NCBI GenBank assembly: GCA_965247685.1
Contig: OZ252021.1
Span: 1,140,001-1,172,000, forward strand
Reading direction: 5' to 3'
Length of the DNA stretch: 32,000 bases
From: Bdellovibrionales bacterium
Lineage (GTDB): Bacteria > Bdellovibrionota > Bdellovibrionia > Bdellovibrionales > UBA1609
Within the stretch, counting starts at the first letter, position 1; each line of letters starts with the position of its first letter. The position numbers were made by a program, and so were the translations under genes. Positions 1,091-32,000 of this stretch are shown here, piece after piece. Below the pieces are notes generated by a model, which worked only from the letters and a program-made list of their open reading frames with translations, was not told the DNA's origin and searched no databases.

Positions 1091-4000
1091 TTAAAAATCC
1101 AATTTATATTCTAATTCAATCCCTAAATTACTATCTTCTTGATTTTCTTCTTTATCATTTTCCCAAGAACCCAGTATAGAAAAATCAGGGGCTAAGTTAT
1201 ATTCGAGCTTAAAACTATTATAATCTTCGTCAATGGATTGTGTGTAAGAAGTATTAAGTTTTTTAAACCATCTTTTATGTAATTCAATTTTACTTGAAGG
1301 GGCGTTTTTCTGACTATTGATGTAGGATGTGATATAAATTTGAACACCCAGTAATTTATTGAGTTCTTTTCCAATAGTATCTTGAAAAAGCATAGAGCCA
1401 ATTTTATAGCCTGAATAACTTGCAATTTGGTTTACTTGCTGTGAAGGGTTGGTAAAACCAATCGATCGAGCTCCTAAAGCCATCATAGATAAAATTTCTT
1501 CTTCAGGCAGGCTAGGTTGGCTATTAAGCTTAAATTCAAAGTCATCTGCTTTTCCAGATACATTGGCCGTAATTTCATAAAGAGTAATTGTCTCTTTTTG
1601 ATTTTCATCTAGTTTTATTTCCTCAAAGTGGGTATTTCCTACGAGTTGAAACTGAGGATCTAATAAGGGCTGTGATTTGTATTGGAGCCACCCAGATTCT
1701 AGTTGAAAATCATACTCTCTTAAGTGAAGAATACTGTTTGGAATAAATCGGATTTCTCCTAATGTGATAGGATTGGTGAATTTGCCTTTTAAATTTAAGA
1801 AGCCATCTATTGATGCAGTAAATAAGGTATTTTCTAAAGAGAAAGGTTGTTGAAAGACGAGATTTATATCCCAATGGAATACATCTTTGCTGTCAGAAGG
1901 TTCAGGGAGTGTTTCTTCTAAAGATTGTAATTCTTCTTTAAAATATCCTGACTGAACAAAAAACTTTCCACTCATTAAATAAGGTATGCGATCTCCATAT
2001 ATTCTTAAACTTCCATATCCAAAACCTTGAATAGACTCATTGATATAAATACCAAAAGAACGTTTCAATTTAAAATTTAAGTCTATTGGAAAAAGATCTT
2101 TATTAAAAAATCCAACCATACCTGTACCTTCAACCTCTCCATTATAAGAGGTTTTAGCTGTCATTTCTTCAATATGAATTTGTTCATTTCGCAAAGATCC
2201 CTCAAGCTCTAGAGACTGTAAAATATCTATGTAGGATGTAATATTGAGTGTGCTATTAGAGATTTTAAAAGTTCCTGTGGGATTCCAATTGTTAAGATTA
2301 TTGTTGAATTTGATTTTTAGTTTTAAATCTCCTGTAACATTCTTGATGAAGGGTAAAAAGATATTTAAAAATTCCAAACGCATCAAACCTTGAACCCGTG
2401 TTTGACTCTTGCCTGAGGTTTTAAAAGAAACTTTTGAATTGTGGCTACTCCACTCTGAAAGAGAATCTTTTAAAAAAAATCTGCCTTTATTAAAGGTGAT
2501 GTAAGAAGGGGAGAGCATCTTTAATGGATAAGTACCATATTGAATATGTAATTTTTTTAAATCGAGATGACCTGTCATCAATTGAGGCTTATTCCAAGGG
2601 AAAGAAAGAGAAGTTTCTCCTGTAACGTTAGAATAAATTTGATTTGAAACAATTTTAGCAGGCCATAGTGAAATAAAATTCCAGTTCTTAAACTTTGCCT
2701 TAAAAGAGATAGGGGAGCTCTTATCCCATAAAGAAAATTGGATATTATCAGCATCTATTTGTTGATTAAATAATTGGGCAGATCCCTTGAACTTTTGAGA
2801 TTTAAAATCAAAGTGAACCTGAGAGTTGCCTAAACTCACAAGTTGATGGCGAAGAGAATCTAATTGGATTTTTATATGACCGACAGGGGATTGAAATGTT
2901 CCATTAATAAGAGATTGAAATTGTAAAGTACCAGAAAGTAAAGCCCAATTTTGTGTGGTTTGAGATTTTTCCAGAAATAAGTTTTGACCATTTATTTTTA
3001 AGTTGAGTTTTTTGGAAAATGTATTGAAACGCCCCGTTAAAGAGATGCGACCTTTAATTTTCTCCAATAAACCTTTGGTAATAGTTGCTCGGCCTTTTTT
3101 AGAATTGATATTTAAAGTTAGGCTTTTAAAAAAATCATCTTGGATTTTAATATTCTTGAATTGAGAGGTTATTTTATAATTCAATTTTTTAGTATTCAAA
3201 GGGCTGTCAATAAAAAGCTTCAAACGACCTTTTCCTACTACAGACAAAGATAGAGGTAGAAAGTGATCAAGAGTTTCAACAATGTCTTCTAAAAATAAAT
3301 ACTTTGATTGCATTTTTGCGTTCATCCATTCTTTTTGTATGAGAAAAGAAATATCTCCTGTATAGCGGCTTTGTCCTTTTTGTGCTTTAATGTTTTTTAG
3401 TTGAACTTGACTAGGAGTGAGATACAGTTGGGTTGTTGCATTTCCGAAATTGATTTGATTCCATTTGAAATTTTTTATTTTTAAGTGAGATTGGATAGAT
3501 AAAGTTTTTTGGTTGTCATCCCATTCTAAAGTTCCCTTTGTTAATTCGGTTTGACCTTGGATTTTTTGATCAAAAAAGTTTTGAAAATTAAAGGTGTCAA
3601 AATTTCCGTGAAAAGAAATGAACAGCTTATTGTTATTAGTCTCACTTCCTTTAAAATAGATTTGAGACTTATAACCTTTGACAACTCCTTGAGTGAAAAA
3701 TTCATCATTAGATGCATTCCAAGACCAATCACCCTTTATTTGAAGGGGATATAGAGTGATATTCAAAGTATTTTTTTCAATAATAGAAAAATTATCAAGC
3801 TTTGCATCTATGGAACATTTTATTTGTAAATTTTCAAGTTCTCCTTTGCACTTGCCTTCTAAAGGGGTTGTAAATTGAAAAGAAGTATTCCAATTAAAAA
3901 TAGCTTCTATGTCTTTAAAATTTTTAATATGAGAAAAATGATTAAATTGAAAACTCTTCTTAGAGTTCCATTCTAATTTTGCATCTTCTATAAAACTCGT

Positions 4001-4957
4001 CCATCCATCTTTTTTTTCTAAATGAATAAGGTTCCACTGTGCACCTTTTTGATCGATTTTTCCTTGAGCTTTCATTTGAGATAAGAAGAGATTTTTAAAA
4101 CGAAGATTTTGAATTTGTATATCGAAACCTCCTTCCCATTTCTTTTTTGTACTGTAATTCATTTGAGCTCGAATGTTCCAAACACCTTCTGTAGAAAGTG
4201 GAGTGTCTTTCCATAAGGATATCCAAGGTAAAGCAGATTGAATGTCCCATTTTGTTTCTATATTGAGTGAAATGTTTTGCATTAAAGGCCAATCTTTCCA
4301 CTCTCCATTAATGGAAGCACTCGATTCATTATCTGTGAGTTGAAGGGCGGCAAAATGAATCTTTTGTTCTGTGATGAAAAAATGAGATTGTAAATGAAGT
4401 TTGGATTTTTGAAATCGTAGATCAGAATCTACCTTCACTTGAATTTTTTCAGAATAGTTAGTGGCATGAAATCGAGTTATAGGAGATGAAATAGAGCCGC
4501 GAGGAATATATGCTTTCCACTGGAGACGTTCAACGACAAAATGATGGATAGGTAGGTTTTGAACAAAATTAAAAATTTCCTTCCATGCCATTTGATCACG
4601 ATCTTTTATTTTTGCAACATAGTTCAAATTAGAGATGCTTATATTGATAAAGATTTTTCTTTTAATTAAAGAAGTCCATGGAGCTACTTGAAAAACAATT
4701 TTTTGCGGGTGAAAGTTTTTTTGAATTTCTGGATATTGTATCTGAACCTGATGAAGTTCTGCCTTAAGTAGCCAAGATTGTACATTGAGTTTTTCCCATT
4801 GAATTTTTGTATCCGGAATATTTTGAAGAGAAGAAAGTACTTGCTGATGAAACCATGGATGAAACCATATTTTTGAAACTGAGATCGCAATCACAAAAAT
4901 TGAAACAACAAGAGCAATGTAGACTTTGTTCTTCATAAGTGATTCCTTATTTTCCAC
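1091..4957 (-). CDS. tamB: TamB-like translocation and assembly module protein (AsmA-like/DUF490 family), 1288 aa
   Basis: N-terminal membrane anchor (VYIALVVSIFVIAISV). The long body is beta-rich and low in complexity. The C-terminus is typical of DUF490 (ILSMMALGARS ... LGIELEYKLDF, ending in Phe). It sits directly upstream of an Omp85 gene. Confidence 0.75.
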   Translation of the reverse strand: MENKESLMKNKVYIALVVSIFVIAISVSKIWFHPWFHQQVLSSLQNIPDTKIQWEKLNVQSWLLKAELHQVQIQYPEIQKNFHPQKIVFQVAPWTSLIKRKIFINISISNLNYVAKIKDRDQMAWKEIFNFVQNLPIHHFVVERLQWKAYIPRGSISSPITRFHATNYSEKIQVKVDSDLRFQKSKLHLQSHFFITEQKIHFAALQLTDNESSASINGEWKDWPLMQNISLNIETKWDIQSALPWISLWKDTPLSTEGVWNIRAQMNYSTKKKWEGGFDIQIQNLRFKNLFLSQMKAQGKIDQKGAQWNLIHLEKKDGWTSFIEDAKLEWNSKKSFQFNHFSHIKNFKDIEAIFNWNTSFQFTTPLEGKCKGELENLQIKCSIDAKLDNFSIIEKNTLNITLYPLQIKGDWSWNASNDEFFTQGVVKGYKSQIYFKGSETNNNKLFISFHGNFDTFNFQNFFDQKIQGQTELTKGTLEWDDNQKTLSIQSHLKIKNFKWNQINFGNATTQLYLTPSQVQLKNIKAQKGQSRYTGDISFLIQKEWMNAKMQSKYLFLEDIVETLDHFLPLSLSVVGKGRLKLFIDSPLNTKKLNYKITSQFKNIKIQDDFFKSLTLNINSKKGRATITKGLLEKIKGRISLTGRFNTFSKKLNLKINGQNLFLEKSQTTQNWALLSGTLQFQSLINGTFQSPVGHIKIQLDSLRHQLVSLGNSQVHFDFKSQKFKGSAQLFNQQIDADNIQFSLWDKSSPISFKAKFKNWNFISLWPAKIVSNQIYSNVTGETSLSFPWNKPQLMTGHLDLKKLHIQYGTYPLKMLSPSYITFNKGRFFLKDSLSEWSSHNSKVSFKTSGKSQTRVQGLMRLEFLNIFLPFIKNVTGDLKLKIKFNNNLNNWNPTGTFKISNSTLNITSYIDILQSLELEGSLRNEQIHIEEMTAKTSYNGEVEGTGMVGFFNKDLFPIDLNFKLKRSFGIYINESIQGFGYGSLRIYGDRIPYLMSGKFFVQSGYFKEELQSLEETLPEPSDSKDVFHWDINLVFQQPFSLENTLFTASIDGFLNLKGKFTNPITLGEIRFIPNSILHLREYDFQLESGWLQYKSQPLLDPQFQLVGNTHFEEIKLDENQKETITLYEITANVSGKADDFEFKLNSQPSLPEEEILSMMALGARSIGFTNPSQQVNQIASYSGYKIGSMLFQDTIGKELNKLLGVQIYITSYINSQKNAPSSKIELHKRWFKKLNTSYTQSIDEDYNSFKLEYNLAPDFSILGSWENDKEENQEDSNLGIELEYKLDF

Positions 4958-22189: not shown

Positions 22190-22263
22190 TGGGACATAGC
22201 TCAGTTGGTTAGAGTGCTACCTTGACATGGTAGAGGTCGGCGGTTCGAGTCCGCCTGTCCCAA
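22190..22263 (+). tRNA. tRNA-Val (anticodon GAC), CCA not encoded
   Basis: Folded by hand. Acceptor TGGGACA/TGTCCCA, U8, D-stem GCTC/GAGT, and anticodon stem CTACC/GGTAG with loop TTGACAT. T-stem GGCGG/CCGCC with loop TTCGAGT; discriminator A. Confidence 0.9.
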
Positions 22264-23853: not shown

Positions 23854-24159
23854 TTACCAACTCGCCTTTGTGACTCCAGGTAAGAATCCTTGGTGTGCCA
23901 TTTCTCGAACGGCAATACGGGACAGTCCAAAATGTCTCAGATGACCTCGTGGACGTCCTGTCATCTGGCAGCGACGAACAACTCGAGTGAGGCATGTGGA
24001 CTTAGGTAATTTTTGAAGCTTTAAAAAAGCGTCTTGCCGTTCGTCATCAGAAAGTTTCGTATTAATAGATGTTTTTCTAAGCTGGCGTCGAATACTCAAA
24101 AATTTCATAGATTTTTGAAGCTTTTTATCATTTTTAACTATAGAGCTTTTTTTTGCCAC
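23854..24159 (-). CDS. rpsN: 30S ribosomal protein S14 (long, 101-aa form)
   Basis: Collinear with E. coli-type S14: [43 protein letters not shown] start. It is not embedded in an spc-type ribosomal operon. Confidence 0.9.
24134..24152. repeat. 19-bp direct repeat, copy 1 (inside rpsN codons 2-8)
   Basis: ttaactatagagctttttt is identical to 24508-24526. Confidence 0.85.
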
Positions 24160-24190
24160 TTATTTCGCCTTTTTTAAACAGTTTTTTCAC

Positions 24191-24220
24191 TATTAAGCGT
24201 ATTAGGGGTTATAAAGTCAA
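24191..24220 (-). promoter_or_regulatory. Candidate sigma70-type promoter for rpsN
   Basis: Read on the minus strand: TTGACT (24220..24215), an 18-nt spacer, then TTAATA (24196..24191), about 30 nt upstream of the GTG. Confidence 0.3.
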
Positions 24221-24507
24221 GCAGAATTCTTGTAATGGATTGTAAATTGTACAGCTAAGAACCAAAAATATATTCATATTTTTTTATATCAAAGCAAAAA
24301 ATTGAAGATTTCTTTTGAATATAGTGGCAACTAGTGAAGAGGTTTATAGTATGCAGAATCCTATAGCTTTGCCTGAGTTTTTCTTATTTGAGAAGAAGAG
24401 AAAATTTTTTCAAAAAATTATTAGTCCTCGCGTATAGGATAGATTGGAGTGGAAAAATAACATCAAAAATCTCATCAATCTCGAATCAGAAAAAATAATT
24501 TATATTC

Positions 24508-24526
24508 TTAACTATAGAGCTTTTTT
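24508..24526. repeat. 19-bp direct repeat, copy 2 (intergenic, about 350 bp upstream of the rpsN start)
   Basis: ttaactatagagctttttt is identical to 24134-24152. Confidence 0.85.
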
Positions 24527-24650
24527 AACTATAAAATATTTCATCTAAGTGCCATTAAATATACTGAAATTAAGGGATTGCTATTAACAAGAGTGAATAA
24601 CTGTCGAATTACTTGTCACATTAACAATTATCAAGTAGGGTCATTTTCTA

Positions 24651-25940
24651 ATGAAGAAAATTATTAAAGTTTTAATTATCTTTTCTATTTTATTTTCACA
24701 AAATCACATCTTTGCTAAATCTTTTTACGATGAATCTGTTCCTCTGTCAGAAGTCAAAAAACATGCTTATGATTCACTTATGTTAAGAAAAAGAATATCT
24801 GATGGTGATGATCGTCATTGGGGAGGCGACATACCTGCAAGTTTTACTCGGAAAGGGTACAAATATGACCTTCCGTTATTGTCTTCACCAAGAGTTGTTG
24901 ATGTAAATGAATTTGATGTTTTAGGATTTTTTGAAGTTTGGGATACCGAGTTTGATCTTCATTTTGACAAAGATTTATATAGAAAGATCGATTTTGAAAA
25001 ATTATATATATTATCCAAGCAAGGAGATCACACATCCCGAGATTTTTTATTGGGTAGTTTTTCTTTAGAAATTGTTGCCCATCTAATGAACAATGATGTG
25101 AGATTTAATAATGGATATAAAAATCCATTGCCTAAATTTAGTGAATACAATCATTTTGTCGTTGAAATTGTTCGACATGTATATAATAATTGGATTACAT
25201 CTACAACATATTCATACTTTCTTAGAAGATTTTATATACATTTGTATCAAAGTAATATGTTAGGGTCAGACACCAGCGAATTATTAGAAAAATTTGACAC
25301 TAATTGTTGTGATCAGCAGCATTGGTTTGAAGGAAATACTCAAGGATTAAAGTCAATTTCTTCTATGGATGCAGATAACGGCTGGATAAACCCTTTTGAC
25401 TGGTTTGGTTTTCATGAACAAGAAACAATAGACGAAGAAATTATTATACAGGATATAGTAAAGAAAATTCATATTTTACATGAGAATAAAGATAGTGTGC
25501 TCCGAGAGCTTAAATGGAAGGAAAGTACAGCTGCTTGGGAAGCAATGGCAGGAGTCGCAGTTATTGCAACAGCTATTGCTGGAGGAATTATTGTTGGAGG
25601 AATTTTTGTTCCAGAAATTATAGCAGGAATAAGTTCACTTCCAATTGGCCTAACAACCACTTGGAGCGAACTTTTTGGGTTTTATGTAACAGGACAAGGT
25701 GTTACTATTGCTATGAACCCAGGAGTTGTTATCGGTCTTGTTAGTTTATGTGCGACAGGTGTCGCTATGGTAATGAATGAATGCAAGAGTCAAAAAAGAG
25801 AAAAACAAGAAGAAGAGAAGCACAAAGAAACAAAAAAATGGCAAAAAGAAGTGAAAGAGGGGCAAAGACAAGCAAGCGAGGAGCGAAGGCAAATACAAGA
25901 AAATCAAAAAAAACATGAACAAAAGCATTATAAGAAGTAA
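24651..25940 (+). CDS. Orphan secreted/membrane protein: signal peptide, about 270-aa unknown domain, Gly-zipper hydrophobic region, K/E/Q-rich tail
   Basis: Signal peptide MKKIIKVLIIFSILFSQNHIFAKS. Hydrophobic Gly/Ala-rich block AMAGVAVIATAIAGGIIVGGIFVPEIIAGISS ... GVVIGLVSLCATGVAMVM (about 25530-25785). The charged tail WQKEVKEGQRQASEERRQIQENQKKHEQKHYKK is shared with the downstream small ORFs. Confidence 0.6.
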   Translation: MKKIIKVLIIFSILFSQNHIFAKSFYDESVPLSEVKKHAYDSLMLRKRISDGDDRHWGGDIPASFTRKGYKYDLPLLSSPRVVDVNEFDVLGFFEVWDTEFDLHFDKDLYRKIDFEKLYILSKQGDHTSRDFLLGSFSLEIVAHLMNNDVRFNNGYKNPLPKFSEYNHFVVEIVRHVYNNWITSTTYSYFLRRFYIHLYQSNMLGSDTSELLEKFDTNCCDQQHWFEGNTQGLKSISSMDADNGWINPFDWFGFHEQETIDEEIIIQDIVKKIHILHENKDSVLRELKWKESTAAWEAMAGVAVIATAIAGGIIVGGIFVPEIIAGISSLPIGLTTTWSELFGFYVTGQGVTIAMNPGVVIGLVSLCATGVAMVMNECKSQKREKQEEEKHKETKKWQKEVKEGQRQASEERRQIQENQKKHEQKHYKK

Positions 25941-26194
25941 TGAGAAGTGGGAAAATGTTAAAGAAAGATAAAAAAAATCAAGTGTTATATGGCTTCTGTA
26001 TTTTTATTGTTTCAATTTATTTTATTCATTCTTATTATATTTTTCGAAGTAATGAAAATCGATCAGCAAAGATGCATAAAGAAGTAATGGAGTGGCAAAA
26101 AGAAGTGAAAGAGGGGCAAAGACAAGCAAGCGAGGAGCGAAGACAAATACTAGAAAATCAAAAAAAACATGAACAAAAGCATCATAAGAAGTAA
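25940..26194 (+). CDS. Small single-pass membrane protein, paralogue 1
   Basis: 84-aa ORF. Lys-rich N-terminus, TM VLYGFCIFIVSIYFIHSYYIF, then a charged helical tail. TAATG overlap with the upstream stop. An internal ATG at 25955 (MLKKDKKNQ) matches the start of paralogue 3. Confidence 0.55.
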   Translation: MRSGKMLKKDKKNQVLYGFCIFIVSIYFIHSYYIFRSNENRSAKMHKEVMEWQKEVKEGQRQASEERRQILENQKKHEQKHHKK

Positions 26195-26430
26195 TGAGAA
26201 GTGGAAAAATGTTAAAGAAAGATAAAAAAAATCAAGTGTTATATGGCTTCTGTATTTTTATTGTTTCAATTTATTTTATTCATTCTTATTATATTTTTCG
26301 AAGTAATGAAAATCGATCAGCAGAGATGCATAAAGAAGTAATGGAGTGGCAAAAAGAAGCAAAAGAGGAGCGAAGACAAATACTAAAAAATCAAAAAAAT
26401 CATGAGCAAATGCATCGTAAAATTAATTAA
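26194..26430 (+). CDS. Small single-pass membrane protein, paralogue 2
   Basis: 78 aa, near-identical to paralogue 1 through the TM. The tail lacks GQRQASE and diverges at the end. TAATG overlap with paralogue 1. Confidence 0.55.
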   Translation: MRSGKMLKKDKKNQVLYGFCIFIVSIYFIHSYYIFRSNENRSAEMHKEVMEWQKEAKEERRQILKNQKNHEQMHRKIN

Positions 26431-26439
26431 GAGATAAAA

Positions 26440-26673
26440 ATGTTAAAGAAAGATAAAATAAATCAAATATTGCTTAGTTTATTAATTTTTATTATGTCAG
26501 TGTATGTTGTTTATTCTTATAATGTTCGATTAACAACAGAGAGGCAGATAGATGAGCATTTGAGACAAATAAAAGAGGAGCAAAAAAAGGGAAGTGAGGA
26601 TCTCAAACAAATAAAAGAGGAGCTGCAAAAGAGAAATAAGGATCTCAAACAAATAAGAGAAAATCAAAAATAA
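26440..26673 (+). CDS. Small single-pass membrane protein, divergent paralogue 3
   Basis: MLKKDKINQILLSLLIFIMSVYVVYSY has the same architecture. Its tail contains its own internal repeat (DLKQIKEE / DLKQIREN). Confidence 0.5.
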   Translation: MLKKDKINQILLSLLIFIMSVYVVYSYNVRLTTERQIDEHLRQIKEEQKKGSEDLKQIKEELQKRNKDLKQIRENQK

Positions 26674-27001
26674 ATAATAGAAAATAAAAATCATAAAATT
26701 AATTTCTTATAAAGTTTTTATTAATTAGTTTTTGACTTTCCTTTAAAAAATAAAGAATTGATAAATCCTTAAAATACCTCCAATAAGAAATCCTTTTTCA
26801 GGAAGGGCAGAATAAGAGAATACCTTCTCCCACAAACATATAATCACAATGTAACATAATATAACTTATCAGATCATTAGGTATATATCAGATTTAGCTC
26901 AAGTTTTAAGGGTTTAGGTTATTAGTGAGTTTTGTGTATCATATAAATCACGAAATTTAAAAAAGGACTTATAATTTGAATACAATAGAATCCATTCCAT
27001 T

Positions 27002-30000
27002 TTATAGAAAATCACCCAACAGATCTATTTGAATTATAGGAAGAGCATTAGAATCTAAATCATTAATATATTGAGAAGGCATTAAATAATCTGTTACTAT
27101 ACATCCTTCAATAGAGTCGATAGCTGGAGTGAATCCAACAATATGATAAATGGATTGGTAATTATTTTTTATCCAATTTAGACGATTAGTATGTTTTTTG
27201 CGAATTTTTTTCATTCTTTCTAAACTGTTAAATATTTCATTAAGATTTCTAGATAATTGAAGTCTTTTGGATTCAATGATTTTAACACGATTATCTTTCC
27301 ATGCTAATACATCTATGTCTCCTAAACTTTTCGAAGCTCCTAATGTAGACATTTTTAAATTTAATTTCACTTTCCAATGTGATTCTTGTACTTTATCAGC
27401 AACCTTTTGATTAAATTGCTCTCCCTTTTGCTTATTAATATTTCCACACAAACTTTTCATTTCATTTGATTTAAAAAAATGTATTGGAAAATTCCCCTCT
27501 TCTATCTGATCAAATAAGTAACATATAGATCTCTCAAAATTCCCCATTCCATAAAAAACATTGCCATCATTAGATCTTTTTGTTGCTAATAAAGGTCTAA
27601 CATTCAAGGCAAGTCTACGGTTATATTTAGAAGGTAATATATCTCTGTTTTTAAAACCTACAGGGGGGATGTTCCAGTCATCACGAGAAAAAATAACAAA
27701 TGAGTTCATAAAATGTTGAATAGTTTCACATGATATCCCTTCCTCTTTACATTTTTTCTTAATTTCTCCAATTGTTGTTTTAACAACTACACTAGATTTT
27801 TCATTAGCTATTTGAAATAAAAGCTTATAAATTTGTGCCATATCCTTTGTGGAAATTCCAAATTCAGCCTTGAAAGCGTTCTCTATTCTAGAAAATTCAA
27901 ATTCAGTTTTGAAAGCGCTCTCTATTTCATTTCTTGATTGTGTATTATTATAAAATTCTTTATAATTTTGACTTTGATCTTTTTGTTGAGAATACCGTAT
28001 CCCTTGCATAAAGGGTAATACTCCAGTATACAGAAACTCACGATCAATAGAGTACAGACCATCTCTTTCCCTTTTAATTTCTTTTTTACTGAAATTATAT
28101 TCTATTAAATCAGAATCAAATGATACTTCTAATAAAAACAAAGACTCTTCTAACAGTTCTTCCATATCCCATTCAGATAAAATTTTCCCCCCATCTTCTA
28201 AGCATTCACATATTGACATTTCTAGTAGAATTTGAATAGATTTTTTTATATTATCTCTATTTCTACTTTTTTCTTCTGCCACATTTTTACTTTCTTCAGC
28301 GTAGGACAGAAAAGCTCTCATTATCCTCCTCCAGAAAGAGTCTTCATGAATTTGAGACTCATATATTTCCATTAGCTTATGTATCACATCCGATTTATTA
28401 AATAATTTTAGCTTTGATTTAATATGTGAACGAATATATTCAAATAAATCATGTAAGAATTTTTGAACTTCTTGCTCGATTAAAGGAAAATTATAATTAT
28501 TGATTTGAAAATCTTGTAAAATTTTAAATCTTACAAAGTGATTATCAGCAATTGTCCTTTCAAAATTGAAGTTAATATTTTTGTTTTGAACAAATTTAAA
28601 AACACTTCCATCATCTGGAAACAAATGCAAAATTTTATTATCTGATTGAACTATTTTATTCACAATAGAATTGACTCGACTATCCGATGATTTTTCTTTT
28701 TTCTCACATAAACTTATGAGTGATGAAACTATATGCTTAGCAATCTCTCTCTCCCCTTTATTTATAGTAGTGTTGAAGTTAAGAAAAAAATTATATGGAA
28801 ATTTAATTTCTGCTCTATTTTTCGAAAAATCAAAAATAGTTTCTGTCTTCTCAATTTGTAGATGTTCATCAAATACTTTTTGATCTAATTTAATATTCTC
28901 AAAATTTAAACAAATCTCCAGTGTGATGTGAGACTGATCTTTCAAAATATTTTCAATTTCATGGACTATTTTGTAGTATAATACATCTAATCCTGAAGAA
29001 AGGAGCGTACATGCAATTTTCATAAAATTTGAAGCACATTTAATAGATAGCCATTTAGGAGTATTATTTTCTACAGAAATTCTTAATATATTCCTATAGA
29101 ATAAGGGATATAAATCTGTGCAGATTGGTAATTTTCTAAATTCTCTGTGATAAGAAGATGAAATAGACTTTAAGACAGGAAAATACTTTCCATCTATGTC
29201 TTTAGTGCAATGAATATCTAAGAGCTTTCTAATATCCTTATTTAATGGAAAAACAATATCAGGACAACATATGAATAAAGATTGATTATGATCCATGATT
29301 AGAGTACAGTTTGTGTGCCACGAGCAATATAAAGCATAATCTCCATTTATGGAAGAAAACCCCCTTCCTTGATTTTCAAAATATTTTTTTTGATCTAAAA
29401 ATTTTAAGTAATTTTTTAATGACCACTTTGTCTTGTCAATTGGAGCACCTAGTTTAAGAAAATCTTGTGTTTTAATGCATGAGTAGCACCATGAATTATC
29501 TGCTAAATCTGGTATCTCTTCAATTATCGTATTTAAACCGTCGCAACTAGGTAGGATTAAAACTGTTCCTGAAACAAAATCATTTTGAGATTTACAAAAA
29601 TCTCTCATTTTTTTTATTTCATTTGAAATTTTATCAGTATTATTAATCAAAGGTTCTTGTTGTACAGATATATGAAATAATAGTATGCAAAGATATTTAT
29701 CAGAATCGTACTTTAATATCCAAGACTTAACAAGTGAAGAAGATCGTTTATCTTTTTGCTCATTAGGGTTTCTTACTACATTAAAAGCACGAAGAGGACT
29801 GAGTAGGCCTTCAATCATATTAATTTCATTTTCAAAAAAGATTTCATCAAATTTGTAAGTATAGTTAGTTTTTTTAAATTCAGAAATTATATAATGTCGT
29901 ATTGCTGCTCCAATTGCATTAGGCAAAGCTACAATAATTTTACCCTCAATGCAGATAAAAGGCTTTTTTTTCAATTCAGAGCATCCATGGTTTTGATTAT

Positions 30001-30601
30001 CTGATGTTTTTATATCATTTTTTGTAAAGAAAAAAGGCTTAAGAAGGTCGATATGAATGTTTAAATCAAATAATTCATTCGCATCAAATACTACTCTGTT
30101 AATCATTTCATGTGATAATTTTGATATTTTGATATTTTGTTTTGGAGATGTTTCTTCTGAGTAATCCCATCTTTTTAAACCAGATCTTTGGACAACTTCA
30201 TCACTTAATCTAAGTAAGTTAAAAATATGTAGTAATAACTCTTTATAATTTTCATTTTTTAAGAACAAAGATTCTATAGTTTTTTGAACATAAAAATCAT
30301 TTGATTCCCATAATCCTTCGAAAATTCTAAAACTTCCTTGAAGAGTTATAATATTTGTTACAAATACATCTTCTATAGGATCTTCCTGGGATTTATATTG
30401 ATCTAAATCTTTGTTCAGAAAAATTTCAATTTCTTCCTTTTCTGGAGAAATTGAAGATTTTTTACAATTAGATACTACAAGATGAATAAGCTTTTCTATG
30501 CGATAGGAATTAGAAGCTAAAGAAGGTATAGTAAGTAGAGATGAAATTTTTGAAAGAGTTAAGAATAAATCATATTTTTTAAGTTTTTCATCTATAGACA
30601 T
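27002..30601 (-). CDS. Orphan 1199-aa protein with a C-terminal NERD/PD-(D/E)xK-like nuclease motif
   Basis: Uninterrupted 3.6-kb ORF. Residues about 1060-1112, KGEQFNQKVADKV ... LGDIDVLAWKDNRVKIIESKRL, fit the E...D...ExK restriction-fold core. I could find no Walker A (GxxxxGK[ST]), helicase or methyltransferase motif. Confidence 0.8.
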   Translation of the reverse strand: MSIDEKLKKYDLFLTLSKISSLLTIPSLASNSYRIEKLIHLVVSNCKKSSISPEKEEIEIFLNKDLDQYKSQEDPIEDVFVTNIITLQGSFRIFEGLWESNDFYVQKTIESLFLKNENYKELLLHIFNLLRLSDEVVQRSGLKRWDYSEETSPKQNIKISKLSHEMINRVVFDANELFDLNIHIDLLKPFFFTKNDIKTSDNQNHGCSELKKKPFICIEGKIIVALPNAIGAAIRHYIISEFKKTNYTYKFDEIFFENEINMIEGLLSPLRAFNVVRNPNEQKDKRSSSLVKSWILKYDSDKYLCILLFHISVQQEPLINNTDKISNEIKKMRDFCKSQNDFVSGTVLILPSCDGLNTIIEEIPDLADNSWCYSCIKTQDFLKLGAPIDKTKWSLKNYLKFLDQKKYFENQGRGFSSINGDYALYCSWHTNCTLIMDHNQSLFICCPDIVFPLNKDIRKLLDIHCTKDIDGKYFPVLKSISSSYHREFRKLPICTDLYPLFYRNILRISVENNTPKWLSIKCASNFMKIACTLLSSGLDVLYYKIVHEIENILKDQSHITLEICLNFENIKLDQKVFDEHLQIEKTETIFDFSKNRAEIKFPYNFFLNFNTTINKGEREIAKHIVSSLISLCEKKEKSSDSRVNSIVNKIVQSDNKILHLFPDDGSVFKFVQNKNINFNFERTIADNHFVRFKILQDFQINNYNFPLIEQEVQKFLHDLFEYIRSHIKSKLKLFNKSDVIHKLMEIYESQIHEDSFWRRIMRAFLSYAEESKNVAEEKSRNRDNIKKSIQILLEMSICECLEDGGKILSEWDMEELLEESLFLLEVSFDSDLIEYNFSKKEIKRERDGLYSIDREFLYTGVLPFMQGIRYSQQKDQSQNYKEFYNNTQSRNEIESAFKTEFEFSRIENAFKAEFGISTKDMAQIYKLLFQIANEKSSVVVKTTIGEIKKKCKEEGISCETIQHFMNSFVIFSRDDWNIPPVGFKNRDILPSKYNRRLALNVRPLLATKRSNDGNVFYGMGNFERSICYLFDQIEEGNFPIHFFKSNEMKSLCGNINKQKGEQFNQKVADKVQESHWKVKLNLKMSTLGASKSLGDIDVLAWKDNRVKIIESKRLQLSRNLNEIFNSLERMKKIRKKHTNRLNWIKNNYQSIYHIVGFTPAIDSIEGCIVTDYLMPSQYINDLDSNALPIIQIDLLGDFL
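27861..27938 (-). repeat. In-frame 39-bp tandem duplication inside the 1199-aa ORF
   Basis: aattcagccttgaaagcgttctctattc versus aattcagttttgaaagcgctctctattt. These encode IESAFKTEFEFSR / IENAFKAEFGIST. Confidence 0.7.
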
Positions 30602-30652
30602 TATTTTTCTTTTCTTTAAAAAATAATGTATTTTAGCTATTTTATGGATTCA

Positions 30653-31108
30653 CTATAGACATTTTCCCATCCAATTGGTGGCTACTGTGTGTCCTTCTAG
30701 ATTCATAATTCTTGATTGAACAAATGTTTTTTGTTTTGTATCGATAAGAAATACCACTGTTGCAGAAGTACCCCCACTAAGAAGCCAATAGGTACCATTA
30801 TTTTCATTCAATTTCATCAGGTCAATTTTGTTTGGTAAAAGATTATTTTCTGGAAGCATTTTGGGAGTTTTAGATTTTAAATCTGTAAATATAGTGGGGT
30901 ATTTTGATTTTTCCTTTTTGGCAGAGATTTTGATTTTTTTATTATCTGGTGAGTAGTGAGAGCTAGTTATGTGGGTAAGATTACAAGTTATAGAGTTACT
31001 TGTATCCGGGTATGGTTTTTTTGTTGAAACTAGTTTACCAATAGCTTGATTAACAAAAGATAATTGCGAAAAAACAATTATAAATAAAAACGTTAGTATA
31101 AATTTCAT
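30653..31108 (-). CDS. Small exported hypothetical protein
   Basis: Signal peptide MKFILTFLFIIVFSQLSFVNQAIG. I prefer the ATG at 31108 over the track's GTG at 31117 because an AAGGTGG SD sits 5 nt upstream of it. Its stop lies 51 bp upstream of the 1199-aa ORF, same strand. Confidence 0.6.
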   Translation of the reverse strand: MKFILTFLFIIVFSQLSFVNQAIGKLVSTKKPYPDTSNSITCNLTHITSSHYSPDNKKIKISAKKEKSKYPTIFTDLKSKTPKMLPENNLLPNKIDLMKLNENNGTYWLLSGGTSATVVFLIDTKQKTFVQSRIMNLEGHTVATNWMGKCL

Positions 31109-31601
31109 AAAAACCACCTTCTTTATTAAGAATTTCTTTTAATTGATGTTATTAATTAACTTAATTATAATTAATATTCAAGTTTTTTAAAATTAGCTAT
31201 CATATATGTATCAATTCGTTACATTTTATATCCAATAGAAGAACTTTTTATAAAAAGATAGATATTTTATTCAAAACAGGTATGTTCGAATTTAAAAATT
31301 TTAAATTACATAGCGGATTGTAACCCTATATCTATGAATTTATGAATAATTTCTTTAATTTCATCTAGTCCTCTTAGTTGATTTAAGTAAATCCTCTTAA
31401 TCGTTTTTTGTTAAAAAGAAGGAAAATACTTTAAAGAAAATTAACAAAATATAATAACTTGGACAGGTGAAAATAATAAAAATGTTTTAAAACTAAACGA
31501 TAATGGTAAAAGTTCCTAAAATATGGTTATTGATGCAACTTAGGGTTATCAATAAACAAAATTATCCAAGATCCACTTAAAATCGAAATTCCCGATTTCG
31601 A

Positions 31602-31613
31602 GAATCTAGATTC
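31602..31613. promoter_or_regulatory. Perfect 12-bp palindrome GAATCTAGATTC, a possible operator
   Basis: Located about 60 bp upstream of the serine protease ATG and immediately after a 7-bp-stem hairpin (31583-31601). Confidence 0.2.
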
Positions 31614-31671
31614 CATTTTTAACTGATAAGTTATATTTCAATTTTTTCTTTTTCTATCCGATAAGAGGTAT

Positions 31672-32000
31672 ATGAAAAACTATTTTTCAAAATTATCTAT
31701 ATACTGTTGTTTGATTTTTGCATTTTGCTTTCAAGTAGAAGCAACTCGCATGCAAGAAAAATATGATAAAATACAATCTAACTTTAGAAGACAGTATGAA
31801 AAAAAGTATAATATAAATCGTACTAAAAACATAAATCGTACTAAGAATATAAATTATACTAAAAACAATTATCAATTAAACGAAATGAAAGATTTAGAAC
31901 AATCTACAGTTGTTATTTTTTCCAAAGATAAAACAGGTAAAGAAAATGGACAAGGGAGTGGGTTTTTTATTTCTAACAATCAAATTGTAACTAATTATCA
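31672..32000 (+). CDS. Secreted trypsin-like (S1C/Trypsin_2-type) serine protease, N-terminal part; continues beyond the window end
   Basis: My own translation: MKNYFSKLSIYCCLIFAFCFQVEA (signal peptide) ... STVVIFSKDKTGKENGQGSGFFISNNQIVTNYH. This is the GSGF-x-I...IVTN-x-H pattern around the catalytic His. An AGAGG SD lies just upstream. Confidence 0.65.
   Translation, partial: MKNYFSKLSIYCCLIFAFCFQVEATRMQEKYDKIQSNFRRQYEKKYNINRTKNINRTKNINYTKNNYQLNEMKDLEQSTVVIFSKDKTGKENGQGSGFFISNNQIVTNY
31810..31863 (+). repeat. 18-bp tandem repeat x3 within the protease N-terminal linker
   Basis: aatataaatcgtactaaa / aacataaatcgtactaag / aatataaattatactaaa, encoding NINRTK NINRTK NINYTK. Confidence 0.8.

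Follow-up and report, generated by a model that had tools for sequence, protein, structure and literature searches.

Upx, by name an uncharacterised PD-(D/E)xK defence protein, was first reported by Gao et al. (2020, Science 369:1077; reference 17 of PMC13601566). Only SeUpx, HpUpx and PbUpx have been shown to act against phages and to be activated by the phage large terminase, and these three homologues, some of them only 16% mutually identical, respond to diverse large terminases (PMC13601566). In its apo form Upx is a monomer (PMC13601566). SeUpx was characterized as a Mg2+-dependent 3'-5' ssDNA exonuclease, its middle domain (MD) was described as a regulatory hub, and its N-terminal domain (NTD) was also reported to be an atypical nuclease (PMC13099982). 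Substitutions E1176A or E1176A/K1178A in the C-terminal domain (CTD) abolish defence (PMC13601566, PMC13099982), and E1176A removes defence and toxicity alike (PMC13601566). The two studies differ on the trigger, which is gp16 in PMC13099982 and the terminase in PMC13601566, and also on the outcome, described in one as direct immunity and in the other as toxicity or cell death. The evidence that Upx binds terminase comes from genetic screens and from modelling with AlphaFold 3, not from a solved complex.

The large terminase is also the phage protein sensed by Avs1-3, STAND NTPases which, like Upx, combine a large sensor and a nuclease-type effector in one polypeptide. The protein described below differs from these in having neither a STAND NTPase nor a Walker A motif, and it shows no sequence or structural similarity to Avs3 (Foldseek probability of Avs3 chains 0.02-0.04).

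Full-length homology to Upx

The window, i.e. the entire 32,000-nt stretch of DNA that was analyzed, contains at positions 27002..30601 of the minus strand a single uninterrupted ORF with an ATG start, comprising 1199 codons and a stop codon at 27002-27004. The ORF listing thus confirmed the 1199-aa reading frame given in the earlier note. The same note had considered the gene an orphan of mostly unrecognisable sequence that matches no named system; both statements proved wrong, since a named family, Upx, was matched along the whole length of the protein. The PADLOC Upx model PDLC02221 (E=2.4e-102) aligned residues 6-1178 with positions 43-1249 of 1271, i.e. 95% of the profile, and the NCBIfam model NF042954 "anti-phage protein Upx" (Upx_antiphage) was matched at positions 25-1223 of 1240 (E=2.1e-113). 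The score for the latter, 379.7 bits, did not reach the equivalog cut-off of 1900 bits, which delimits a narrow equivalog group corresponding to the curated enterobacterial set and not the whole Upx family. Because of this score (380 bits against a cut-off of 1900) and an identity of 19%, functional equivalence to SeUpx is inferred and not certified. The precomputed Pfam annotation PF28173 "Upx-like" was present on 14/14 database homologues, including an identical protein (P0001), and a search of the full-length protein against a Pfam-A model set without PF28173 gave no significant match.

The homology extends to the three-dimensional structure. In a phmmer comparison, the protein matched chain 9wuf_A of the PDB (SeUpx of Salmonella enterica) across residues 13-1130 (E=4.3e-67). 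An AlphaFold2 (AF2) model (pLDDT 81.4, pTM 0.78) was aligned by Foldseek with 9wuf ("Cryo-EM structure of Upx") over 1296 columns, with E=3.5e-54, TMq 0.77, TMt 0.76 and 19% identity. This was the only significant PDB match, the next one having E=0.026, and the three-domain NTD-MD-CTD fold of 9wuf is present in the model.

At 50% identity the Upx family falls into 1,755 clusters, and almost all of these are colinear proteins of 1,200-1,270 aa. Like SeUpx, the window protein is the ~1,200-aa product of a single gene; the two are homologous and colinear over 95% of the length and share the NTD-MD-CTD fold (TM 0.77), the GDID...ExK core, and the lack of an NTPase and of a partner gene, the window protein being 73 residues shorter (1199 vs 1272 aa) and only 19% identical. 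It belongs to a low-GC clade of seven metagenomic members, 45-53% identical among themselves, and shows 19-32% identity to all Upx proteins outside this clade. A scan of 185,579 species-representative genomes recovered 398 loci, none of them from the clade of the window protein (best identity 32%). The gene is not new: its product belongs to an already known defence family, distantly but along its full length, and the appropriate annotation for 27002..30601 is Upx-family anti-phage protein, neither hypothetical protein nor novel system.

Domain organization and the C-terminal nuclease core

Domain boundaries were transferred through a HMMER alignment to 9wuf_A and the domain limits given in PMC13099982. 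The N-terminal domain, a putative sensor of phage proteins, is encoded at 29216..30601 (minus strand, as are all of the following segments; aa 1-462, SeUpx NTD 1-515). It is of mixed alpha/beta structure in the AF2 model, and its N-terminus carries no signal peptide and aligns with the N-terminal helices of SeUpx. In this N-terminal part, the motif best conserved across the Upx family is EDPIEDVF (30362..30385; aa 73-80); among 87 full-length homologues E73 is retained in 82, D74 in 78, P75 in 83, E77 in 81, D78 in 83 and F80 in 77. The same motif was also selected automatically as a search pattern. The middle domain (28619..29215; aa 463-661, aligned in 9wuf_A to SeUpx MD 516-714) is the least conserved segment, with ~17% identity to distant homologues (calculated for approximate bounds 479-677). 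It is followed by the helical part of the C-terminal domain (27425..28618; aa 662-1059, aligned to 9wuf_A), for which the model shows long helices between residues 710 and 935.

The PD-(D/E)xK nuclease core occupies 27005..27424 (aa 1060-1199, SeUpx 1121-1272). In the model, a helix (1046-1073) precedes strands 1077-1083, 1095-1102 and 1105-1112, a second helix (1120-1146) and a strand (1164-1170), and the weak Foldseek matches to the tail of the protein were PD-(D/E)xK proteins without exception. The catalytic motif G1094-D1095-I-D1097...E1110-S-K1112 (27266..27322) was aligned with G1158-D1159-I-D1161...E1176-C-K1178 of SeUpx, with D1097, E1110 and K1112 placed exactly on D1161, E1176 and K1178. 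Its residues are highly conserved in the 87 homologues (G1094 in 86, D1095 and D1097 in 82 each, E1110 in 84, K1112 in 83).

An E / D / ExK arrangement had been proposed for this region in the earlier note. Its D...ExK part is real and under selection (82-86/87), but the upstream glutamate, E1061, is not conserved: the column contains His in 44/87 homologues and Glu in only 3/87. The positions given for D1095, D1097, E1110 and K1112 were correct, as was the correspondence of DNA 27266-27424 to residues 1060-1112. The quoted peptide is present, but it starts with K1059-G1060-E1061, one residue before 1060, and its end, IIESKRL, falls at 1114 instead of 1112.

The likeness to NERD domains that had been suggested found weak support. 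NERD (PF08378) was the best Pfam match of the isolated C-terminal 162 aa (E=0.002, profile 1-91/111), yet its score of 19.0 bits is below the gathering score of 22.1 bits, and the full-length protein gave no NERD match in Pfam. Card1_endonuc (PF09002; E=0.0055, 16.7 bits vs a gathering score of 26.4) and PDDEXK_15 were further sub-threshold matches of the isolated core. NERD and the Card1-like endonuclease share the PD-(D/E)xK superfamily with this core; the upstream Glu on which the NERD argument relied is, however, the residue that the Upx family does not conserve.

Neither a Walker A (P-loop) nor an hhhhD[DE] motif was found in the window protein, no Walker A is conserved in the Upx family, and the Pfam search detected no NTPase, helicase, methyltransferase, HEPN, TIR or Sir2 domain. 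The absence of such motifs, stated in the earlier note, was thus borne out by the motif scan and Pfam, and the architecture proposed there (a large sensor-like body with a terminal PD-(D/E)xK nuclease and no NTPase or partner, acting as a single-protein effector) coincides with the published description of Upx (PMC13601566, PMC13099982). The grouping of Upx as a "nuclease-NTPase" system (bioRxiv 10.1101/2025.07.10.664194) was rejected, with no NTPase motif here and none conserved family-wide. No neighbour family occurred more than four times among 143 genes flanking ~70 Upx loci. The window gene is a stand-alone single-gene system, without an NTPase or an obligate partner.

Genomic context of the gene and of its relatives

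The gene is carried by a lineage-specific low-GC segment (24160..32000, no strand assigned) that begins right after rpsN and whose right end lies beyond the window. GC content is 0.23-0.29 from 26 kb to the end of the window and 0.336 at 25-26 kb, and elsewhere it is mostly 0.29-0.38. The Upx gene itself has 0.27-0.29, so its placement in the most A+T-rich part of the window holds only roughly, as GC is equally low or lower in 31001-32000 (0.231), 1-1000 (0.263) and 26001-27000 (0.264). In the two nearest related (Bdellovibrionota-like) genomes (L087 and L088) the gene order is conserved up to the gene of ribosomal protein S14 and different afterwards, and the low-GC DNA carrying the Upx gene is absent from the syntenic site. 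The genomic position of the gene is accessory and variable.

The gene had also been described as lying downstream of a tRNA. This is a loose description: tRNA-Val (22190-22263) is 4.7 kb away. We rejected tRNA-Val as an integration site because housekeeping genes, for a BCCT transporter and S14, intervene and a search revealed no direct repeat of the tRNA end at the flanks. A phage origin of the island was likewise rejected, with no PHROG match for Upx or any flanking ORF. The other ORFs of 24160..32000 gave no Pfam, PHROG or PADLOC family, and no recognised defence genes adjoin the Upx gene in the window. On the same strand, an ORF of 154 aa with a signal-peptide-like sequence precedes the gene by 51 nt; it was discarded as a candidate partner gene, as it belongs to no family and has no equivalent upstream of Upx in the six close relatives. 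Since the counts from a promoter and terminator scan were not above those for shuffled sequence, nothing can be said on transcription signals.

The six close relatives (L081-L086, 45-53% identity) each have different neighbours, with restriction-modification (R-M), toxin-antitoxin (TA) and transposase genes adjoining. These neighbours comprise Type III R-M (twice), HinfI with GmrSD_C and Hypoth_Ymh, HsdM with SLFN_AlbA_2 and an NTase pair, KAP NTPase with Transposase_31, and Gp49 with a DDE transposase and HNH. Around Upx in general (the 143 flanking genes), R-M, TA and integrase families head the raw neighbour counts, which were made without a background control. An accessory or defence-island context may be common to the window protein and known Upx.

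Proposed mode of action and alternative readings

Published work on other Upx proteins suggests how the window protein may act. At rest, the Upx monomer would be inactive. On infection, the large body formed by the N-terminal and middle domains would bind a phage protein, most likely the large terminase through its ATPase domain, and binding would free the Mg2+-dependent C-terminal PD-(D/E)xK nuclease. Once released, the nuclease would degrade DNA that carries free single-stranded 3' ends and would halt the production of phage, probably with some cost to the cell. In our analysis, 27002..30601 is best explained as an intact but divergent Upx gene with a stand-alone anti-phage role and a mechanism of the published type, an explanation that we consider likely.

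In SeUpx a different mechanism was put forward by Zhou et al., in which the N-terminal and C-terminal sites are both catalytic and the MD auto-inhibits the former. We regard its operation in the window protein as unlikely, and find the second part of that reading, release by a phage ejection protein (gp16-like) leading to direct immunity without cell death, improbable to the same degree. The overall fold and domain order are those of SeUpx, D127A/R129A abolished SeUpx defence (PMC13099982), and three of the five reported N-terminal nuclease residues are kept (R92, E110 and D134 for R129, E147 and D173). The other two, D122 and D127, are replaced here by I85 and S90, and owing to this loss the window protein probably has no working N-terminal nuclease site of the kind described for SeUpx. 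At the position of D122 the 87 homologues vary essentially at random (I/E/L/V/T/N), and at that of D127 56 of them carry Asn, just 18 Asp and 6 Ser, a variation not expected of catalytic carboxylates; because these columns vary across the family, the N-terminal nuclease residues characterize SeUpx and do not define the family. Moreover, gp16 gave no activation in the work of Evans et al., in which terminase was the sole activator (PMC13601566). Conservation of EDPxEDVF and GDID...ExK alongside an unconserved N-terminal site favours the view of a sensor plus one nuclease.

Two further readings concern the identity and the role of the gene. That it represents a new, unnamed single-protein system, a sensor fused to a NERD-like nuclease and unrelated to described systems, might be suggested by the lack of a significant full-length Pfam-A match (without PF28173), the unreached NCBIfam equivalog cut-off and the absence of a name for the protein in the source databases. 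This reading is already refuted by the PADLOC, NCBIfam, phmmer-to-9wuf and Foldseek matches: the protein is homologous to Upx in sequence and structure end to end, and the identical database protein is already in PF28173. It is very improbable that the protein derives from Upx but no longer serves in phage defence, as a decaying relic or as a nuclease that a Bdellovibrionota-like bacterium, predatory or host-associated, has put to another use. The host lineage, inferred from GuaA homologues, is indeed unusual, the nearest relatives with a name being MAGs of Bdellovibrionales and Pseudobdellovibrionaceae; no known defence genes flank the gene in the window, and the signal-peptide-like ORF lies just upstream. 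However, the 3.6-kb ORF is uninterrupted and keeps every family-invariant residue, the catalytic set included; in place of a signal peptide the protein has an N-terminus that aligns with the N-terminal helices of SeUpx; the closest relatives reside in R-M, toxin-antitoxin or transposon neighbourhoods; and the upstream ORF is conserved beside Upx in no relative.

As a divergent and intact Upx, the window protein extends the range of the family to an uncultured, low-GC Bdellovibrionota-like lineage, and it provides a sequence that, with 19% identity to SeUpx, is very divergent but retains the fold and the C-terminal catalytic core. The low-GC Bdellovibrionota-associated clade could, more tentatively, be a single-nuclease variant of Upx in which the sensor has diverged and responds to something different from the large terminase. 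The family alignment bears on the disagreement between the two 2026 Upx papers and suggests residues for mutation. With D122 and D127 unconserved family-wide, the dual-nuclease mechanism may be either peculiar to SeUpx or not catalytic at the N-terminal site, in which case the NTD would serve all family members as a sensor and nothing else.

Family identity and fold

The Upx-family gene is a single uninterrupted ORF of 1199 codons with an ATG start, located on the minus strand (27002..30601). The peptide quoted in the earlier note was found in it with small offsets (K1059 opens the "KGEQ" string); DNA 27266-27424 encodes exactly residues 1060-1112, and D1095, D1097, E1110 and K1112 agree with the numbering used there.

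With the Pfam-A version used, the full-length protein gave no significant match. The PADLOC Upx model aligned with aa 6-1178 (E=2.4e-102; profile positions 43-1249 of 1271), and NCBIfam NF042954, "anti-phage protein Upx", was matched over profile positions 25-1223 of 1240 (E=2.1e-113), with a score of 380 bits that is far under the equivalog cut-off of 1900. A database protein search identified an identical entry (P0001), located on a 1.28-Mb contig, along with 13 relatives, six of them sharing 45-53% identity and seven 24-29%; lengths range from 1154 to 1260 aa, and every one carries precomputed Pfam PF28173, "Upx-like". The sole real match in a PDB sequence search was 9wuf_A, the solved Upx of Salmonella enterica (SeUpx; E=4.3e-67, aa 13-1130 of the window protein).

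A confident AlphaFold2 model was obtained from a 14-sequence alignment (mean pLDDT 81.4, pTM 0.78). Foldseek against the PDB returned one significant match, 9wuf "Cryo-EM structure of Upx" (E=3.5e-54; TM 0.77/0.76 over 1296 columns, 19% identity). The second-best match had E=0.026, and the weak tail consisted of PD-(D/E)xK domains (R2 restriction-like endonuclease, VC1899, AF1548, Cdn1, EndoMS, FokI, Hjc). The protein therefore has the Upx fold and adds a divergent new member to a known defence family that was characterised recently. The earlier note had guessed a stand-alone anti-phage effector, which was right in kind, but its description of the gene as an orphan does not survive these matches, and the new, unnamed defence system that it proposed is refuted.

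When 1.84 billion cluster representatives were scanned exhaustively with HMMER, 1,755 relatives were detected at E<=1e-3, of which 1,219 reach 1e-10 and 455 reach 1e-30; almost all are 1,200-1,270 aa long, with colinear matches. Scanning a single genome for each species located 398 Upx loci in many phyla. None exceeds 32% identity to the window protein, whose own clade therefore lacks a species-representative genome. No Walker A motif is present in the window protein, and the six occurrences among 87 family members, each at a different position, are as expected by chance.

A 39-nt tandem duplication lies within the gene (27847-27924, minus strand; aa ~893-918). Its copies, 82% identical, encode IESAFKTEFEFSR / IENAFKAEFGIST and overlap the linker with the lowest confidence in the model (aa 887-902) at its 3' (C-terminal) end.

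The C-terminal nuclease core

Conservation was assessed in 87 sequences, comprising 73 full-length homologues from reference-genome loci, the 13 database relatives and the window protein, aligned along with SeUpx fragments rebuilt from HMMER alignments. In the HMMER alignment, GDIDVLAW...IESK of the window protein pairs with GDIDLLAW...IECK of SeUpx, and D1097, E1110 and K1112 thus correspond to D1161, E1176 and K1178. These residues are kept in 82, 84 and 83 of the 87 homologues, respectively, as are G1094 (SeUpx G1158; 86/87) and D1095 (SeUpx D1159; 82/87). Judged by its residues, the C-terminal active site is intact. The upstream glutamate assigned to it in the earlier note, E1061, aligns with SeUpx H1122 in a column with His in 44 and Glu in three of the 87. 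When the C-terminal 162 residues were scanned alone, NERD was closest (PF08378, E=0.002), followed by Card1_endonuc and PDDEXK_15. "NERD-like" is a fair term for this resemblance, but the match scores 19.0 bits, below the gathering score of 22.1, and does not amount to NERD membership.

Genomic context

The window belongs to an uncultured, Bdellovibrionota-like bacterium. Its GuaA shares 58-66% identity with proteins of Bdellovibrionales or Pseudobdellovibrionaceae MAGs and 79-83% with those of metagenomic genomes. The two nearest genomes share with the window the order Peptidase_S8 - ZapA - RNase Y - TyrRS - ACAD - GuaA - DnaE - LipB - (BCCT) - S14. This synteny ends right after rpsN (S14, 23854-24159), beyond which they carry other housekeeping genes (Redoxin-L17-RpoA-S11-S13 or pseudouridine synthase). 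In the window, rpsN is followed by a low-GC segment of at least 7.8 kb (24160-32000, continuing past the window end) with Upx and ORFs of no known family. This accessory segment resembles a variable hotspot, with its right border beyond the window. The Upx gene is indeed A+T-rich (GC 0.27-0.29 vs mostly 0.29-0.38 across the rest of the window), but 31001-32000 is lower still (0.231). The only tRNA in the window, tRNA-Val (22190-22263), is separated from the ORF by 4.7 kb that include a BCCT transporter gene and rpsN.

The Upx start is preceded, 51 nt away on the same strand, by a 154-aa ORF (30653-31117, minus strand) whose N-terminus is hydrophobic and resembles a signal peptide. This ORF belongs to no known family and is absent upstream of Upx in all six close relatives; it is therefore probably not an Upx partner. 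On the plus strand, a tandem unit of ~254 nt (25800-26693; two copies 93% identical, the third diverged) gives rise to three small paralogous ORFs of 84, 78 and 77 aa (25940-26194, 26194-26430, 26440-26673), each with a single hydrophobic helix and a tail rich in E/K/Q; a 429-aa ORF (24651-25940) ends in the same charged tail. No Pfam, PHROG or PADLOC family was matched here, apart from a weak ZorB/MotB-like match (E=0.0015). Unrelated to Upx, a 1288-aa ORF (1091-4957, minus strand) that ends in a TamB domain (E=2e-29) is followed by a gene for a 345-aa TPR protein; both are housekeeping genes of outer-membrane biogenesis.

The six close relatives occupy different neighbourhoods, all rich in defence or mobile genes: HinfI, GmrSD_C and Hypoth_Ymh in one; HsdM, SLFN_AlbA_2 and a nucleotidyltransferase pair in another; KAP NTPase and Transposase_31, or Gp49, DDE transposase and HNH, in one each; and Type III R-M immediately upstream in two. 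In the latter two (L081 5308-9810 and L082 5499-9939; relatives at 48% identity), Upx is directly 3' of the Type III pair N6_N4_Mtase and ResIII, on the same strand with a gap of 60-190 nt, which could be a recurrent linked arrangement in this clade. Among 143 immediate neighbours at about 70 distant loci, no family occurred more than four times; ResIII, Methylase_S, HSDR_N, N6_N4_Mtase, SWI2_SNF2, PIN, Fic and phage integrase recurred. These counts, which have no background control, do not measure enrichment but show that a conserved partner is lacking.

Probable mechanism and the proposed N-terminal site

The first report of Upx is that of Gao et al. 2020 (ref 17 of PMC13601566). According to Zhou et al. 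(PMC13099982), who solved its structure, the 1272-aa SeUpx consists of N-terminal (NTD, 1-515), middle (MD, 516-714) and C-terminal (715-1272) domains and has Mg2+-dependent 3'-5' ssDNA exonuclease activity, with a canonical catalytic core D1161/E1176/K1178. They proposed a second, atypical NTD nuclease site (D122, D127, R129, E147, D173) that the MD keeps inhibited until phage gp16 releases it, resulting in direct immunity. Evans et al. (PMC13601566) differ on trigger and outcome: of the genes co-expressed in their genome-wide screen, only the large terminase activated Upx, and gp16 failed to do so. They found that three Upx homologues with identity as low as 16% answered diverse terminases via the ATPase domain, and that E1176A abolished both defence and toxicity. 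Their AlphaFold 3 models point to beta-augmentation, by which a partly unfolded ATPase domain would be threaded through the N-terminal sensor.

By analogy with these experiments, the N-terminal and middle body of the window protein would sense a phage protein, most probably the ATPase domain of the large terminase, and sensing would license degradation, by the C-terminal PD-(D/E)xK nuclease, of DNA that carries free 3' single-stranded ends. That the gene is instead a non-defence relic is unlikely, since the 3.6-kb ORF is intact and the conserved residues are retained. A dual-nuclease, gp16-triggered variant, as proposed for SeUpx, is improbable here, because I85 and S90 (segment aa 85-90, 30335-30349) stand where SeUpx has D122 and D127. 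In the alignment of 87 homologues the column of I85 is essentially random, and that of S90 contains Asn 56, Asp 18 and Ser 6 times. The remaining positions are R92 (SeUpx R129; Arg in 62/87), E110 (E147; Asp/Glu in 57/87) and D134 (D173; Asp/Glu in 72/87). The alignment is reliable in this region, where the EDPxEDVF and G.W motifs, both nearly invariant, anchor it; the window protein therefore lacks two of the carboxylates claimed for the N-terminal site. EDPxEDVF, just upstream of I85/S90, is not discussed in the examined sections of PMC13099982 and PMC13601566.

The control mutants K111A/K134A and D135A/N138A, as named in the Fig. 4d legend of PMC13099982, do not match 9wuf_A as aligned (111=D, 134=V, 135=W, 138=A), while D122, D127, R129, E147 and D173 agree; the naming in that legend may reflect a numbering or typographical issue.

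The preferred reading of the window protein is an Upx, probably terminase-sensing, with a C-terminal nuclease. Its only wider value lies in the variability of the proposed N-terminal catalytic residues: D122 and D127 are not conserved across the 87 Upx homologues, which bears on the disagreement between the two 2026 papers (PMC13099982 vs PMC13601566).
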